Shown here: in pieces, positions 3,011 through 63,239 of the stretch
Layout of the letters: every line of letters begins with the position of its first letter
How positions within the stretch are numbered: position 1 is the first letter of the stretch
Assembly: GCA_038881595.1 (NCBI GenBank)
Contig: JAVZPM010000002.1
Location: 59,254 to 123,253, forward strand
Direction of reading: 5' to 3'
Length of the DNA: 64,000 nucleotides
DNA from: Candidatus Micrarchaeia archaeon
GTDB lineage: Archaea; Micrarchaeota; Micrarchaeia; CABMEP01
Program-made: the position numbers and the translations under genes
The notes under the pieces: generated by a model
Told to the model about the DNA's origin: nothing
Database searches by the model: none
Seen by the model: only the letters and a program-made list of their open reading frames with translations

Positions 3011-3083
3011 TAGCCCCGACCGGATTCGAACCGGTGTCTCGGGCTCCAAAGGCCCGCATACTTGACCGCTATACGACGGGGCT
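3011..3083 (-). tRNA. tRNA-Gln (anticodon UUG), no intron
   Basis: Reverse complement folds as a 73-nt cloverleaf: acceptor AGCCCCG/CGGGGCT, anticodon stem CGGGC/GCCCG, loop CTTTGGA, T-loop TTCGAAT; CCA not encoded. Confidence 0.85.
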
Positions 3084-3717: not shown

Positions 3718-4641
3718 ATGCGATCAACACAACACATAATAAAGCAAGATGGTGCAACCACTATCAGTGCTGGAACAATAATTCTTTATATAATTGCAAT
3801 ATTAGTTATTGCAATGTTCCTTCTCAATTTCTTATCAGTTGTAGGAGTTGGAGGGTGCGTTGGGGTAATAGAGGTAAATGGAGAGATTTCCACTTCTAAA
3901 GGATATGGATTAGTTTCTTCATCTGAAATTATTAGTTTGCTTAAGGAAGTAGAATCCAGGCCAGATATAAGAAGTGTTGTTTTAGTAATGAATACTCCTG
4001 GCGGTTCAGCAGTTGCTTCTAATGAAATTTATTTATATCTAAAAGGCATGAAGAAGCCAACTGTTACATATATAAGTGAAATGGCAACTTCCGGAGGATA
4101 TTTCATATCTCTTGGAACAGATTATATCTATTCAAATCCCTATGCAGTTACAGGGAGCATAGGTGCAAGAACTGGGTGGGTCATTGACATGTCAAGATGG
4201 CTAAATAATACAGGAATAAATATGAGTGTGATAAAAAGCGGAGAGATGAAAGATTCCGGTGATATTTATAGACCTATGACAGAAGAAGAGAAAAAAGTAT
4301 TTCAAGAAATAATTGATGAAATAGGAGGTTCTTTCCTCAATCTTACAATATCAGAAAGATCTAAGAATGCAAGATTTAGCCAGAATTCCATATCTTTAAT
4401 ATCTGACGCAAGGATATTTACAGGAAAACAAGCATTTGAAATTGGATTGGTTGATGAACTTGGAACAAGGCAAGATGCAATAAATAAGGCTGCAGCAATG
4501 GGAGGATTAGACCAGAGCCCGAGCATCTGCGTTCTTGAGACAAAGAAAGATTTCTTAAGTACTATGTTTAATGAGATGGGAAGAGGTATAGGTGAAACTT
4601 TAAGCAATAAGTTATCATTTAATAGTCTTCGTATACAATAA
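3718..4641 (+). CDS. sppA: Signal peptide peptidase SppA (S49 family)
   Basis: VLVMNTPGGSAVASNEIY...SEMATSGGYFISLGTDYIYSNPYAVTGSIGA is typical of SppA/ClpP-fold S49 peptidases; TM anchor after Met at 3718; TTTAAATATA box about 25 bp upstream. Confidence 0.75.
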   Translation: MRSTQHIIKQDGATTISAGTIILYIIAILVIAMFLLNFLSVVGVGGCVGVIEVNGEISTSKGYGLVSSSEIISLLKEVESRPDIRSVVLVMNTPGGSAVASNEIYLYLKGMKKPTVTYISEMATSGGYFISLGTDYIYSNPYAVTGSIGARTGWVIDMSRWLNNTGINMSVIKSGEMKDSGDIYRPMTEEEKKVFQEIIDEIGGSFLNLTISERSKNARFSQNSISLISDARIFTGKQAFEIGLVDELGTRQDAINKAAAMGGLDQSPSICVLETKKDFLSTMFNEMGRGIGETLSNKLSFNSLRIQ

Positions 4642-4695: not shown

Positions 4696-5268
4696 ATGGG
4701 AAAAAATAAGAAAAATGCATTTATATTCACAACAGATGCATTTCTTGCTCTCCCACTAGTTGTTTTGGCAGTGTCTACATTTATTGCATTTTCAGTTACT
4801 CTTCGAGATAATATTACTGTACAAGAATATGCCTACATAATTGCAAAAGATGCAATAAATGTTTTAATCGATTCAAACCCACAGCATATCGGGGGATCTG
4901 GAGATAATTCATTTGCTTATATAATTGCGCAGAATATTGTTGATTCAGATTTAAATAGCGCAAACAGTACTGCATCTGTTATCGATTCCATTGTTCCTTC
5001 TAATGCAGCGTATATACTTGAATATAAATCCGCTTCTGATAACCAATGGAAAGAGATAAGGATTTTAGACAGAGGGAACAAGATAGCGCAAAACAAATAT
5101 TCAATTCAGGTCTCAAGTACAAGGTTAATCGCAGATATCTCGCAACCAAGACTTAATCCAAGTGGCGACTGTCCAAGTGAAATAGTATGTTCTTTCCCAT
5201 CAATATCACAGTATACACCAGGTTCAACAGTTGGTCCACTACTACTCAGGATAAGGGTATTCATATAA
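4696..5268 (+). CDS. Hypothetical membrane-anchored extracellular protein (possible pilus-associated)
   Basis: Basic N-terminus followed by a hydrophobic helix (KKNAFIFTTDAFLALPLVVLAV); first gene of a co-directional cluster of pilin-like genes. Confidence 0.3.
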   Translation: MGKNKKNAFIFTTDAFLALPLVVLAVSTFIAFSVTLRDNITVQEYAYIIAKDAINVLIDSNPQHIGGSGDNSFAYIIAQNIVDSDLNSANSTASVIDSIVPSNAAYILEYKSASDNQWKEIRILDRGNKIAQNKYSIQVSSTRLIADISQPRLNPSGDCPSEIVCSFPSISQYTPGSTVGPLLLRIRVFI

Positions 5269-5296
5269 TAAATATATTCAAAGGATAAGTGTTTAT

Positions 5297-6715
5297 ATGT
5301 TAGGAAAAGAAAATTTCAAAACAAAAAAATCAAAAATGCAATATAGTAAGCAGAGAAAGGGATTTGTATTTACAATCCTAACCTTAGTTATAATAGTATT
5401 CATGATTATAGAACTTAACATATATTTCAGGACATACGAATTGAAACTTGCTAATGAGCCAACGAAATTAAGGCTTCAGGTAATACAGGATTTCATAAGA
5501 GCATATTCTCCAAACTATTTCAATGAAACTGCATATTCTTTCATTTATTCCTCTTTATATGAACTTAACAAAGATTCAATCCAATATCCACCATCCCAAT
5601 CAAGTTTAGCTGAATTAATTTGGAATATATCTTATTCAGGAAAGAGAACAGACAGCCGTACAGTACAGCTAATAGATCAGACTAAAACACTATCATCTTA
5701 TGATTCAAATCTATCTGCTCTTGCAAAGTCAATGAATATTGATTTGGTTGTTAATTATAAGGATTTCAACATCACACAAATAGATTATTGGACTGTACAG
5801 TACAATTTTACAATTGCAGTTTCAATAAATGATAAAGCATCCAGTACAAGTGTTAAGTTCACTTCTCCTATTTCATTAAACATCTCAATAATTGGATTTG
5901 AAGATCCTTGGCTCGCAAGAATGGGATTCAGAAATAAGAGTATAATACCTGTAGATCAGATTCAGATTGATCAGATAAGGCCTTCCCTTTTAATGAACGG
6001 GACAAGAGGAAGAGGATGGTTTTATGGCGAACCAATAATAGTGACAAGCTGTCCTTCTGCTGATTTTGAATTCAGTGATTCTTTCTTAGAGAATAAGACC
6101 AAGATAATGGTTACAGACAACACAGGAGTTGCTAGGGAATGCGGTCAGCTTTTTGGAGCAGTTATAGTAGTATCTGATCAAAACGCAAACACAAATCCAT
6201 TTGTTGGATTAGATGTCCCATTATTCATAAACTCTTCAGCAAAAATCTCAGATATTCCAAGGCAACCTATCTTAATAGTTTCAGATAACGATACAGTAAT
6301 AACAGATGACAGTTCAGGTCATTATCATTACATGCTTGACATAAACAATCTAAGAAGTGGAATAGAATGCGGAAGATATTTTGTAAGGCCATATAATAAT
6401 TATGGCTATCTAAGAAGGCTCACAAACAACGTTACTGGAGTTTTTGATGAATTTGGTATAGAAACCATTCTGTCAGGTACAACACAAGCAATCCCAACTT
6501 CGAGATCCTCTTATAGTTTTGTTGACAGAGAATACAACTCATCCATCCCCGGTAATCTAATTAAGGGTCTTCCAGGTTGCAGTAATCAATTGATATGCAA
6601 TTATACAAAGGATTATCATTCTTCTTCAATACCTTATCCGACACGATTAAGTACGGATGCAGCTAGATATTATTTAGGTTTATTTAACTCCTCAATGATT
6701 ATAAAAAGAGATTAG
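5297..6715 (+). CDS. Large pilin-like or pilus-associated secreted protein
   Basis: N-terminus RKG|FVFTILTLVIIVFMII resembles a class III signal peptide; large Ser/Thr/Asn-rich ectodomain; co-directional with the following pilin-like genes. Confidence 0.35.
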   Translation: MLGKENFKTKKSKMQYSKQRKGFVFTILTLVIIVFMIIELNIYFRTYELKLANEPTKLRLQVIQDFIRAYSPNYFNETAYSFIYSSLYELNKDSIQYPPSQSSLAELIWNISYSGKRTDSRTVQLIDQTKTLSSYDSNLSALAKSMNIDLVVNYKDFNITQIDYWTVQYNFTIAVSINDKASSTSVKFTSPISLNISIIGFEDPWLARMGFRNKSIIPVDQIQIDQIRPSLLMNGTRGRGWFYGEPIIVTSCPSADFEFSDSFLENKTKIMVTDNTGVARECGQLFGAVIVVSDQNANTNPFVGLDVPLFINSSAKISDIPRQPILIVSDNDTVITDDSSGHYHYMLDINNLRSGIECGRYFVRPYNNYGYLRRLTNNVTGVFDEFGIETILSGTTQAIPTSRSSYSFVDREYNSSIPGNLIKGLPGCSNQLICNYTKDYHSSSIPYPTRLSTDAARYYLGLFNSSMIIKRD

Positions 6716-6716
6716 G

Positions 6717-7169
6717 ATGATAACAATGGGAAATGAATTGTTGTTTAAAGGTCAAATAATGCTTGAAACTCTAATAATAGTCTCATTCCTCTTGCTTATC
6801 CTAATTCCTACTGTAATTTACATCTTGTCTGTTCTTTCCACCGAGTCATGGAAGACAGATGCAAATCAAGCATATTCAACATTGACAAAAATCGTTTCGA
6901 TATCTAACAAGCTAGCAATGCTAGGCAATGGTTCATCTTCTTATGAATCTATATTTCTTCCATCAAGCACTCAACGAATGAATGTATCAAGTGATGGAAG
7001 AGAAATCTTCATTACTTTAAAAGGACCTAAATCAGATGATTTGCAAGTTGTTGCTTTAAGTCCAGTCATTATAAGATTGAATTCAACTCAAGACTGGACC
7101 AATATTAAAGGAGCACAAACACTTATGTTTGTTGTTCAAGATGGAGAGGTAATAATATCAAAAACATAA
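6717..7169 (+). CDS. Archaeal type IV pilin-like protein
   Basis: N-terminus ...FKG|QIMLETLIIVSFLLLIL (G-Q, E at +5, hydrophobic helix). Confidence 0.5.
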   Translation: MITMGNELLFKGQIMLETLIIVSFLLLILIPTVIYILSVLSTESWKTDANQAYSTLTKIVSISNKLAMLGNGSSSYESIFLPSSTQRMNVSSDGREIFITLKGPKSDDLQVVALSPVIIRLNSTQDWTNIKGAQTLMFVVQDGEVIISKT

Positions 7170-7242
7170 TATATTCTAATAGAAAGATTAGTAATTTGAA
7201 TATCAGAATTAGCAATGTTTATTTTATTAATGGTGTGGTTTC

Positions 7243-7695
7243 ATGAAGAAAATTAATAATCTCGTAAAAAAAGGACAAGTTGCATTTGAATTCCTTCTCA
7301 TTTATAGCTTTTTCATATTTGTATTTCTTTCTTCGCTTTATATAATCTCTGGACAGGCAGTTCAACAACAAAGGTATGCAGAAGGATTGTATGCGAGAGA
7401 ATTTATTGTAACAATTGCAGATGAGATAAACGCAGCAGCTATGATTGAAGGCTACGAAAAGAATTTAAATATTCCAACTACAATGAGCAGCGTCCCATAT
7501 CAACTATATGTATATAAAGGTATGATTGGATTAAATTACAGCTCAATAACGAATATAGATCTACTATATCCTTTAGCAACAGATAAAGTATTTGTAAATG
7601 GAGTAGATACATCTAAGTACATTGGATATATTAATACAGCAAAAGGAAAGTTAAAAATAATAAGCTCACAGGGCATGGTGATCTTAAATGACTAA
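7243..7695 (+). CDS. Archaeal type IV pilin-like protein
   Basis: N-terminus MKKINNLVKKG|QVAFEFLLIYSFFIFVFL (class III signal peptide pattern). Confidence 0.5.
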   Translation: MKKINNLVKKGQVAFEFLLIYSFFIFVFLSSLYIISGQAVQQQRYAEGLYAREFIVTIADEINAAAMIEGYEKNLNIPTTMSSVPYQLYVYKGMIGLNYSSITNIDLLYPLATDKVFVNGVDTSKYIGYINTAKGKLKIISSQGMVILND

Positions 7696-8200
7696 AATTT
7701 TTAATTCAAATGAAAACAAAATAAAATACAGAACTAAAAAAGGCCAGTTTTTTTCGTATGATGCGATAGTAGCTGGAATACTTTTCATTCTTCTTTTGAC
7801 AATACTTTATAATTATTGGAATTCATTAAGAACAACAGTTTCAATAAGGATTGATGATTCATCAAGAATTGCATTAAGTGTTTCGAACATGCTTCTGACA
7901 CCTGGTTATCCTTTAAATTGGAATTCATCTAACTTTAATCAGATAGGATTAACAGAAAACTATAATACAATAAAACTTAATGAAGCAAAGGTTTCAAATC
8001 TCACTCTTATTTCTTATATAAATTATGAATTGATGAAAGAAAGGCTGGGGGTAGGACCTTATGAGATATATATTACAATCGGAGATGAAAGAATAGGCAA
8101 TGCTCCTTTAAATCCGACATCCAAGGTCACAATAACAAGGCCAGCCATATATAAGGATAGATTAGAAAATTTATCCGTAACTATTTGGAGTACAAAATGA
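7688..8200 (+). CDS. Archaeal type IV pilin-like protein
   Basis: N-terminus ...YRTKKG|QFFSYDAIVAGILFILLLTIL; overlaps the preceding gene by 8 bp, consistent with an operon. Confidence 0.5.
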   Translation: MTKIFNSNENKIKYRTKKGQFFSYDAIVAGILFILLLTILYNYWNSLRTTVSIRIDDSSRIALSVSNMLLTPGYPLNWNSSNFNQIGLTENYNTIKLNEAKVSNLTLISYINYELMKERLGVGPYEIYITIGDERIGNAPLNPTSKVTITRPAIYKDRLENLSVTIWSTK

Positions 8201-36306: not shown

Positions 36307-36486
36307 GGGCCAGTAGCTCAGAGGTAGAGCGCTTCGTTCGCATAAACTTTCTTAGAAAGAGAGTTTGATCAAGGAATTTTCTAAGAAACTCTTTATCAAA
36401 TAGTTTCATCAAAATAAGTGATTGAACTTTCCTAACATGAAAGTAGTAAAGTTTCGGAAAACGAAGAGGTCGCGAGTTCGAATCTC
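36307..36486 (+). tRNA. tRNA-Ala (anticodon CGC) with an approximately 108-nt intron at the canonical 37/38 position
   Basis: Exon 1 36307-36342 (GGGCCAG...CTTCG TTCGCA), exon 2 36451-36486 (A CGAAG...CTGGTCC A); G3:U70 Ala identity pair; T-loop TTCGAAT. Confidence 0.8.
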
Positions 36487-36528
36487 GCCTGGTCCATAAT
36501 TAGTATATAATCAATTAGAGAGGTTAAC

Positions 36529-45676: not shown

Positions 45677-45787
45677 GGCCGCAGAGGGGAATCGAACCCC
45701 TGCTTGGAGGTTTCTGCATTTTTGATGAAACTTTCTTTTAGAAAGTTTCTCCACAGCCTCCCGTCCTACCATTAGACGACCGCGGCC
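45677..45787 (-). tRNA. tRNA-His (anticodon GUG) with an encoded G-1 and an approximately 38-nt intron in the anticodon loop
   Basis: Reverse complement: G-1 + GCCGCGG acceptor, anticodon stem GGAGG/CCTCC, loop CTGTGG|intron|A, T-arm AGGGG TTCGATT CCCCT, discriminator C. Confidence 0.75.
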
Positions 45788-54969: not shown

Positions 54970-55027
54970 ACCTACCTATTCATCTTTAATCCGAGCAATT
55001 TAAATTGTTTTCTGGTTTATTTATATT

Positions 55028-55096
55028 AGATGATGACAATGGATGAATCTGAGTTCTAGTTTGCTAGGACAGTGACGAATGATTGGCGGTCTGATA
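55028..55096 (+). ncRNA. Candidate C/D box sRNA (2'-O-methylation guide)
   Basis: C box AGATGATGA (55028-55036), 12-nt guide, D' CTGA (55049-55052), C'-like TGACGA (55073-55078), 12-nt guide, D box CTGA (55091-55094); intergenic. Confidence 0.4.
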
Positions 55097-60106: not shown

Positions 60107-60213
60107 GCCCCTGTAGCTCAGCTTGGATAGAGCGACTGTCAGACTTAACTTGTTGTTTTGTCTGGTCGAACCTCCTAAGCAGTAGGTCGAGGGTTCAAAT
60201 CCCTCCGGGGGCG
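60107..60213 (+). tRNA. tRNA, probably Arg (anticodon CCU), with a 32-nt intron at a non-canonical position (32/33)
   Basis: Acceptor GCCCCTG/CGGGGGC, D-arm GCTC...GAGC, anticodon stem ACTGT/GCAGT, T-arm GAGGG TTCAAAT CCCTC; a canonical loop (CTCCTAA) forms only if 60141-60172 is spliced out. Confidence 0.6.
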
Positions 60214-62865: not shown

Positions 62866-63003
62866 AATCTAAATTGAATATAAAGGATTAAAAATTTAAA
62901 GTAGATAATATAATAAAACATATATGGATAACTATCGTGGTTAGAGCAATAATTTAATATTTTTACTTACAGATATATATTTATGTAATGGGTTGAGCGT
63001 CAT

Positions 63004-63115
63004 CCCACCGTAGCTCAATCTGGCAGAGCATCTCGCTGTAGTCCAGCCTGTCAGATCCTCTGACAGTCGTTTTGTAGAAACGAGAGGGTTGCTGGTTCAA
63101 ATCCGGCCGGTGGGA
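63004..63115 (+). tRNA. tRNA-Tyr (anticodon GUA) with an approximately 38-nt intron at 37/38
   Basis: Acceptor CCCACCG/CGGTGGG (C1:G72), anticodon stem TCTCG/CGAGA, loop CTGTAG|intron|A, T-arm GCTGG TTCAAAT CCGGC. Confidence 0.75.
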
Positions 63116-63129
63116 CTTGAAAAAAATGC

Positions 63130-63239
63130 GCTTGGGTGGTGTAGAACCTTGTTGCGCAGGTTCTGCGCACATGGTGCACAGTGGTCTAGCATTGCGGCCT
63201 GTCACGCCGCCGACCCGGGTTCGAATCCCGGCCCAGGCG
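63130..63239 (+). tRNA. tRNA-Asp (anticodon GUC) with an approximately 37-nt intron in the D-loop
   Basis: Exon 1 GCTTGGGTGGTGTAG, exon 2 TGGTCTAGCAT T GCGGC CTGTCAC GCCGC...CCGGG TTCGAAT CCCGG CCCAGGC G; the mature 73-nt cloverleaf requires removing 63145-63181. Confidence 0.65.

Follow-up and report, generated by a model that had tools for sequence, protein, structure and literature searches.

A tandem tRNA-Tyr/tRNA-Asp unit in Micrarchaeota, with a probably protein-spliced D-loop intron of the relaxed HBh' type in tRNA-Asp

The 64,000-nucleotide stretch of a Candidatus Micrarchaeia archaeon analysed here (hereafter referred to as the window; assembly GCA_038881595.1, contig JAVZPM010000002.1, positions 59,254 to 123,253) contains a tRNA-Tyr(GUA) gene followed, 14 bp downstream, by a tRNA-Asp(GUC) gene, and both genes are interrupted. 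The second of them raises the question of whether a tRNA-Asp with a 37-nt insert in its D-loop is a working gene from which the insert is spliced, or whether it should be read as a dead copy, as a gene interrupted elsewhere, as a tRNA with an additional arm or as an artefact. Our analysis favours, with a probability of about 90%, a functional Tyr-Asp tRNA unit in Micrarchaeota, in which both introns would be removed by proteins, that of tRNA-Asp by way of a relaxed HBh' motif. The initial annotation had described the tandem and its spacing, a palindrome-containing intron at the canonical position of tRNA-Tyr, and a hairpin-containing D-loop insert in tRNA-Asp, the removal of which leaves 73 nt. 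These observations were confirmed, and the interpretation placed on them is supported, with the qualifications on intron density and on the endonuclease given below.

Deletion of the insert, which lies between G15 and U16, yields a 73-nt tRNA-Asp(GUC). The identity elements of tRNA-Asp are the anticodon GUC, the discriminator G73, the G10-U25 pair and C38, and all of them are present in the spliced product, which carries GUC in a 7-nt loop; the ARAGORN call for an identical, uninterrupted gene (see below) concurs. Splice motifs were sought with a script for bulge-helix-bulge (BHB) structures, defined as a helix of 4 bp with a 3-nt bulge on either side, each bulge being cut after its second nucleotide, and for each interrupted gene there was one solution giving a correctly folding tRNA of normal length. 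In tRNA-Asp, this solution has the central helix GUGU/GCAC, an outer helix of three pairs on the intron side (h'=3) and no closing helix (h=0), and corresponds to a relaxed motif of the HBh' type, in which the 3' site (AG^U, where ^ marks the cut) opens into the multiloop. Exon 1 and the intron each end in the dinucleotide AG, which leaves three possible registers for the junction (13/14, 14/15 or 15/16, with the same product in each case), and it is the bulge rule that places the cut at 15/16. The BHB prediction suggested by the initial annotation was borne out by RNAfold as well as by the script: the unconstrained minimum free energy structure of the 110-nt pre-tRNA-Asp (−50.3 kcal/mol) holds all the predicted elements, namely the acceptor stem, the pairing of G10-U13 with GCAC, the 3-nt bulge A14-G15-A, the ACC/GGU helix and an apical hairpin. 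BHB-like pairing at the true register was obtained for 0.43% of composition-matched shuffled inserts. Both the Asp and the Tyr introns fit the description of archaeal protein-spliced introns of the BHB type, in that their removal restores a cloverleaf and the cuts fall in bulges next to a 4-bp central helix. Neither is of the strict hBHBh' form (h=0 for Asp, h'=0 for Tyr), on which the narrow-specificity alpha4 and alpha'2 EndA enzymes act; the introns of the Arg and Ala genes of the window are of this strict form.

The conserved exons also gave access to orthologous loci. A scan with the 3' exon of tRNA-Asp, using one genome per species, recovered seven loci, all of them from Candidatus Micrarchaeota/Micrarchaeia metagenome-assembled genomes (MAGs). 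The best named relatives of the fibrillarin encoded in the window are Micrarchaeota, Anstonellaceae and Aenigmarchaeota archaea, and these similarities place the host in Micrarchaeota (DPANN). One of the loci, L010 (isolate SKW71), shares the Tyr-Asp tandem, and its tRNA-Asp gene (L010:7097–7169) has no interruption. This gene scores 59.2 bits across the full Rfam model, is called as Asp(GTC) by ARAGORN and is identical to the predicted spliced tRNA-Asp of the window at 73/73 positions. The tRNA-Asp genes of L014 (Micrarchaeum sp.) and L009/L006 are likewise uninterrupted and read GGTGTAGTGG across the junction, and a multiple alignment displays a clean 37-nt indel between the window and both L010 and L014. 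The intron is carried by the window, by four species-level relatives (L008, L011, L012, which is the same as L007, and L013) and by a metagenome contig (L015), as three sequence variants; the independent records of it number at least six and stem from different projects. Over the surrounding 4 kb, the intron-bearing relatives are 80–90% identical to the window. Most of the MAGs in the intron-bearing group have isolate names with the prefixes DRTY- or JZ-, which we take to denote hot-spring sites.

Sequence conservation was quantified as the number of variable sites in a five-way alignment of five species-level lineages. The exons did not vary (0/73 sites for Asp and 0/74 for Tyr), whereas 128 of 200 flanking columns (64%) did (P=5×10−43). 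The introns varied little, at 3 of 37 sites for Asp (P=1×10−10 against the flanks) and 1 of 38 for Tyr, and the spacer between the genes varied at 5 of its 14 sites. The three variable positions of the Asp intron (63152, 63159 and 63171) all lie outside the central helix, the bulges and the first three pairs of the outer helix. One of them, a G to A change in relatives at intron nucleotide 15, is located at the tip of the apical hairpin and does no more than enlarge the loop. The invariance of the exons, the divergence of the flanks and the sharing of the insert together argue strongly against a decaying pseudogene and an assembly artefact, and they imply that the insert must be removed if the tRNA is to function.

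The tRNA-Tyr gene is interrupted at the canonical site, with 41 nt replacing 3 in the anticodon loop of the Rfam alignment. Once spliced, it gives a 74-nt product, CCCACCG…CGGUGGGA, that has the attributes of an archaeal-type tRNA-Tyr(GUA), with a C1-G72 pair, the anticodon GUA and A73; the CCA end is not encoded. In its splice motif, the central helix is formed by CUGU (32–35) and GUAG, and the 3' bulge AA^A is closed by the 5-bp anticodon stem, with no outer helix to close the 5' site AG^U. The position of the intron and its GUAGAA end are retained in six relatives. The palindrome forms a hairpin for which a six-sequence consensus fold includes one compensatory pair, A-U in three sequences and G-C in the other three. 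We also observed that the start of the intron, U(U)CCAGCC (63042–63048), is invariant in six relatives, with the remainder of the intron diverging; in the RNAalifold structure, its CAGC is paired to G31-G34 in place of the central helix of the BHB motif.

Standard searches do not readily recognise these genes. ARAGORN detected one of the six tRNA genes of the window, that of tRNA-Gln, and the Rfam match to tRNA-Asp is partial (model positions 8–63 at 63172–63231, 31.3 bits), because the repeated TGGTG (63137–41 and 63172–76) offers a false D-arm and leaves the acceptor stem unmatched. In one relative (L011), ARAGORN reported a false 72-nt tRNA-Asp (4217–4288) that begins inside the intron, because an A to T variant there creates CTTGG, which mimics an acceptor strand. 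A split or permuted tRNA-Asp gene was ruled out, the exons being collinear, 37 nt apart and on one strand. Self-splicing group I and II introns require a catalytic RNA core that runs to hundreds of nucleotides; the insert has 37, and no Rfam family other than tRNA gave a meaningful match in this region. The only open reading frames (ORFs) across the Tyr-Asp locus are short and spurious.

A different account of the locus would have tRNA-Asp killed by the 37-nt insertion and left unspliced, a second, intact tRNA-Asp gene elsewhere doing the work. It could draw on the missing ARAGORN call, the partial Rfam match and the relaxed splice motif, and our inspection of tRNA genes covered the window, which is a part of the genome. 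A dead gene would nevertheless have decayed, and the exons have not varied among five lineages with flanks as divergent as those described above. Moreover, a BHB-type motif is present at the exact junction (P of about 0.004) and is itself conserved. One tRNA gene per anticodon is to be expected in small DPANN genomes. Genomes of this kind have few tRNA genes, 43–45 having been found in ARMAN genomes (PMC3239211). On this evidence, we consider a pseudogene very unlikely.

The insert might instead lie elsewhere in the gene, with the D-arm starting from the second TGGTG (63172 onward) and 35 nt inserted between 7/8 and 12/13. This is how Rfam aligns the region, with a D-stem GUGC/GCAU, and TGGTG is indeed present twice. 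The BHB script, however, found nothing for cuts at 63136–63141, and the 35-nt candidates that it did return, with cuts after 63144 or 63145, are weakly paired and leave a product of 75 nt. The shifted product (…GGUGCACAGUGG…) is also unlike that of every intron-less orthologue, all of which have GGTGTAGTGG, and we regard the shifted reading as highly improbable.

Retention of the 37 nt in mature tRNA-Asp, where they would form an additional hairpin arm protruding from the D-loop, might be suggested by the stability of the predicted hairpin and by the greater conservation of the insert than of its flanks. In the predicted fold, however, the 5' strand of the D-stem is occupied by the insert, which precludes a D-arm for as long as the insert remains, and the geometry of the BHB motif is indicative of cleavage. 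Additional sequence between G15 and G18/G19 would be expected to disturb the contacts of the tRNA elbow, and we know of no precedent for a hairpin arm retained in the D-loop of a mature tRNA. Such an arm appears exceedingly improbable. Finally, the derivation of the window from a MAG is all that would recommend an assembly or binning artefact, the chances of which are negligible given that the same insert is found in the same context, as three variants, in the independent records listed above.

We thus return to a functional, protein-spliced unit, for which the following course of events can be proposed by inference. The spacer is too short to hold a promoter, and the two genes are therefore probably transcribed as one precursor, possibly from the TATA-like stretch upstream of tRNA-Tyr, which is a candidate archaeal promoter (Table 1). 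In pre-tRNA-Asp, the 5' strand of the D-stem (G10-U13) would pair with GCAC of the intron, displacing the normal 3' strand of the D-stem. The 5' cut would fall in the 3-nt bulge AG^A, between the central helix and the ACC/GGU stem of the intron, and the 3' cut, AG^U, directly after the central helix, in an open loop. Both sites would be cut by a broad-specificity endonuclease, which, by lineage, is most likely to be a three-unit EndA of the epsilon2 type, as in ARMAN-2. An RNA ligase would then join the exons, and the normal D-arm would form.

We looked for such an enzyme with ARMAN-2 EndA fragments taken from a PDB alignment as queries. They matched many Micrarchaeota homologues, and both Micrarchaeota and other DPANN commonly have proteins of 300–340 amino acids (aa) that span the whole of the alpha-betaC query. 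Locus L017 (GCA_023247085.1; 2414–3582), read across runs of N, matches all three units of ARMAN-2 EndA; in L016 (GCA_038874595.1; 1–733), a Micrarchaeia MAG whose contig accessions begin with JAVZ, as does that of the window, the gene is cut at the contig start and matches the end of alpha and betaC. As judged from these matches, an epsilon-like EndA with the order alphaN-alpha-betaC is present in Micrarchaeia relatives. Apparently split EndA genes in relatives (ORFs of 112+127 aa and 197+193 aa) proved to be artefacts of runs of N in the scaffolds. Many entries of 180–220 aa annotated as tRNA splicing endonuclease sit on very short contigs and may likewise be fragments. The epsilon2 EndA was first discovered in ARMAN-2, where disruption affects 56% of tRNA genes, and it cuts strict and relaxed motifs in vitro (PMC3239211, PMC12397907). 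Relaxed motifs located at non-canonical sites serve as substrates only for endonucleases belonging to the (alpha-beta)2 or epsilon2 class (PMC5829648, PMC6379350), and the D-arm is listed in reviews among the known intron sites (PMC6379350, PMC12397907).

Several points weigh against a functional, protein-spliced unit. The 3' splice site of the Asp intron has no closing helix, making the motif a relaxed one. An HBh' substrate in the D-loop is poorly cut by the enzymes of Archaeoglobus fulgidus and Methanopyrus kandleri (PMC5829648), and a literature search yielded no report of such a substrate having been tried with an epsilon2 enzyme. No tRNA_int_endo domain was detected with Pfam in 50 scanned window ORFs of at least 150 aa, nor in the called genes of the next 10 kb of the contig, and a look-up of the leftmost ORF gave no record. 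Neither the EndA nor the ligase of this genome turned up in these searches, and two EndA candidates from NCBI belong to other assemblies. The Asp intron displays no compensatory change, each of its three substitutions breaking a peripheral pair; covariation is accordingly neutral, speaking neither for nor against splicing. The count of one tRNA-Asp gene applies to the window. Splicing of pre-tRNA-Asp is itself argued from the invariant exons and the motif conserved in five lineages, and on these grounds is probable. The initial annotation had seen in the many introns a heavy reliance on a broad-specificity endonuclease and had proposed an inspection of EndA architecture. That reasoning remains sound, and the three-unit, epsilon-like form is seen in relatives; the part concerning this genome was not substantiated in the window or the next 10 kb. 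Its count of introns in five of the six tRNA genes of the window was reproduced with Rfam and the BHB script. Its description of this density as unusually high does not hold: the relatives are all Micrarchaeota, and the level of disruption in ARMAN-2 (PMC3239211) indicates that it is ordinary for the lineage.

The coordinates of the Tyr-Asp unit and of the other tRNA genes are given in Table 1. By an exact protein match, the window corresponds to contig JAVZDM010000001.1 of assembly GCA_038873915.1, a MAG contig of 86 kb. It has a GC content of about 33% and encodes split B and split A subunits of RNA polymerase, EF-2, ribosomal protein S7, fibrillarin, two FtsZ proteins and Kae1/Sua5 (Pfam scans). 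An Rfam scan of the whole window, with an E-value threshold, revealed no tRNA genes beyond the six listed. A sub-threshold Rfam match to the C/D-box small RNA sR2 (55026–55096, plus strand; 30.3 bits for a gathering score of 42, E=0.009) sits in the gap from the Kae1/TsaD gene to a Na/Pi cotransporter gene. Five consecutive ORFs with no Pfam match (4696–8200) are followed by an ORF annotated as a putative phage metallopeptidase (8227–8733); this run, about 1.6–5 kb from tRNA-Gln, could be the remnant of an integrated element.

Table 1. Positions of the Tyr-Asp unit, its introns and predicted splice elements, and the other tRNA genes of the window (central helices are given as 5' strand/3' strand; h, closing helix; h', outer helix on the intron side; ^, cut).
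Feature	Position	Strand	Description	Source or score
tRNA-Tyr(GUA) gene	63004-63115	+	exon 1 63004-63041, intron 63042-63079, exon 2 63080-63115	Rfam RF00005, 52.6 bits, full-length
Tyr intron, 38 nt	63042-63079	+	canonical 37/38 site, relaxed hBH, h=5, h'=0	BHB script
Tyr intron palindrome	63048-63066	+	CTGTCAGA-TCC-TCTGACAG (RNA: CUGUCAGA-UCC-UCUGACAG hairpin)	
Tyr-Asp spacer, 14 nt	63116-63129	+	CTTGAAAAAAATGC	
tRNA-Asp(GUC) gene	63130-63239	+	exon 1 63130-63144 (positions 1-15), intron 63145-63181, exon 2 63182-63239 (positions 16-73)	
Asp splice motif, 5' half	63139-63148	+	GUGU 63139-63142 (tRNA positions 10-13); bulge A14 G15 ^ A 63143-63145, cut after 63144; outer-helix ACC 63146-63148	
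Asp splice motif, 3' half	63173-63182	+	outer-helix GGU 63173-63175; GCAC 63176-63179; A G ^ U 63180-63182, cut after 63181	
Asp intron apical hairpin	63153-63169	+	UGCGCAG-GUU-CUGCGCA; includes GCGCAG-GTTC-TGCGC 63154-63168	
A/T-rich TATA-like stretch	62974-62984	+	ATATATATTTA; 20-30 nt upstream of tRNA-Tyr; possible promoter	read from sequence
tRNA-Gln(UUG)	3011-3083	-	sole uninterrupted tRNA in the window	ARAGORN; Rfam 62.2 bits
tRNA-Ala(CGC)	36307-36496	+	118-nt intron 36343-36460 at 37/38, strict hBHBh', UUCG/CGGA, h=5, h'=7; G3-U70 present	Rfam 52.5 bits
tRNA-His(GUG)	45677-45786	-	39-nt intron 45712-45750 (plus-strand numbering) at 37/38, CUGU/GCAG, h=5, h'=1; encoded G-1	Rfam 49.3 bits
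tRNA-Arg(CCU)	60107-60213	+	32-nt intron 60139-60170 at non-canonical 30/31 in anticodon stem, strict hBHBh', CGAC/GUCG, h=3, h'=5	Rfam 50.6 bits

The other introns of the window display features of their own. The long intron of tRNA-Ala contains a second perfect hBHBh' motif, delimiting an inner element at 36358–36437 (cuts after 36357 and 36437), with the central helix UUAG/CUAA, the bulges AA^A and CA^U, a 6-bp helix h (ACUUUC/GAAAGU) and a 13-bp helix h'. Removal of these inner 80 nt leaves an intron of 38 nt, the usual size here, with the outer BHB still forming, and a motif of this quality was reached by 1 in 1000 shuffled sequences. From its sequence, the inner element looks like an intron nested within an intron, or an excisable RNA flanked by a BHB motif. 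No description of nested BHB introns was found in the literature searched, and this motif may merit more attention than the Asp intron. The sequence AAACUUUCU…GAAAGU is common to the tRNA-His intron and the outer portion of the Ala intron, and the His intron also has an exact 13-nt match, AGUUUCAUCAAAA, to the inner Ala element (blastn-short, E=0.06); these matches hint at a common origin for introns in different tRNA genes.

The tRNA-Arg(CCU) gene lies upstream of fibrillarin. A strict-BHB intron of 32 nt interrupts it at 30/31 in the window, L011 (1131–1237) and L013 (4535–4641); in L007/L012 (L007 1277–1387) the intron has 36 nt and is located at 37/38, and in L002 (7542–7616) and L014 (2341–2416) there is none. 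The spliced anticodon arm of the window gene matches the intron-less gene of L014. As read from these alignments, the intron position in this gene turns over between close relatives.

The distribution described above limits the Asp intron to a narrow set of Micrarchaeia. The uninterrupted tRNA-Asp genes in L010, L014 and L009 favour the view that the common ancestor of the intron carriers gained it, most parsimoniously after this group had split from lineages with an uninterrupted gene. Loss of the intron in L010 is a possible alternative, which a species tree would be needed to separate from gain. The recurrence of TGGTG…AG, together with the miscalled tRNA of L011 starting in the intron tail, prompted the idea that the intron arose by partial duplication of exon 1. 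This was rejected, local alignments of exon 1 and its leader with the intron being no better than those of shuffled sequences (479–991 of 2000 reached the score). A blastn-short search of the window and all loci found the intron only in the Asp gene, and a metagenome scan with the intron core returned one contig, in the same Tyr-Asp context. As no copy was found elsewhere and the similarity to exon 1 is not significant, neither transposition nor local duplication is supported. The low variability of the intron (3/37 sites, against 64% in the flanks) might be taken as a sign of a recent, lineage-specific gain under purifying selection beyond the needs of the splice motif, and so of a possible function, although we consider this unlikely. 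An intron at this site might, for instance, keep the neighbouring G15 (the archaeosine site) from being modified before splicing, or might shield the gene from integrating elements; on this reading it could also simply serve as a natural system for the de novo origin of archaeal tRNA introns.

The closest system described is ARMAN-2 (Candidatus Micrarchaeum acidiphilum; Fujishima et al. 2011, PMC3239211; Hirata et al. 2012, PMC3488258), which belongs to the same phylum. Most of its tRNA genes are likewise interrupted, at canonical and non-canonical sites, by introns with a mixture of strict and relaxed BHB motifs. The introns presented in the main text of that study lie at 37/38, 53/54 and 59/60, and none of these examples is a tRNA-Asp intron in the D-loop (PMC3239211); the tRNA-Asp of the Micrarchaeum sp. 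MAG (L014) is, as noted, uninterrupted. A protein-spliced D-loop intron is also known in pre-tRNA-Thr2(UGU) of Aeropyrum pernix (Hirata et al. 2011, PMC3241643), where EndA alone removes it in vitro, more slowly than the anticodon-loop intron (PMC3241643; D-loop cleavage also in PMC5829648). That intron has a strict BHB and is handled by a crenarchaeal (alpha-beta)2 enzyme, whereas the motif of the Asp intron is relaxed and its enzyme probably of the epsilon2 type. The D-loop intron of pre-tRNA-Glu(UUC) in M. kandleri (Kaneta et al. 2018, PMC5829648) is of the same HBh' type as that of tRNA-Asp; it lies at 20b/21, on the opposite side of the D-loop from 15/16, the gene carrying a canonical intron as well, and is cut inefficiently in vitro by the organism's own enzyme (PMC5829648). 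Thermoproteales (Sugahara 2008 and Fujishima 2010, via PMC4090602 and PMC4033280) resemble the present group in their high intron density, in the use of non-canonical sites including 30/31 and in rapid gain and loss, but introns there are gained by transposition, of which the Asp intron shows no sign.

A protein-spliced, non-canonical tRNA intron with a relaxed motif, in a lineage with a broad-specificity endonuclease, is therefore of a well-known kind. New, relative to the described examples compared here, are the 15/16 site in tRNA-Asp, the clade, and the pair of intron-plus and intron-minus genes with identical exons. Current understanding is unchanged, and a specialist would expect such introns in Micrarchaeota. 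The locus adds to the non-canonical archaeal tRNA introns a well-supported case of a relaxed HBh' motif at 15/16 of tRNA-Asp, with the junction fixed by an intron-less orthologue. The intron-plus and intron-minus alleles would be convenient substrates for examining how an epsilon2 enzyme handles an HBh' motif in the D-loop. Standard tRNA finders miss genes of this kind, so that tRNA-Asp would seem to be absent from these MAGs. For the phylum, the finding means that heavy disruption of tRNA genes reaches from the acid-mine ARMAN-2 to a further group of Micrarchaeia.

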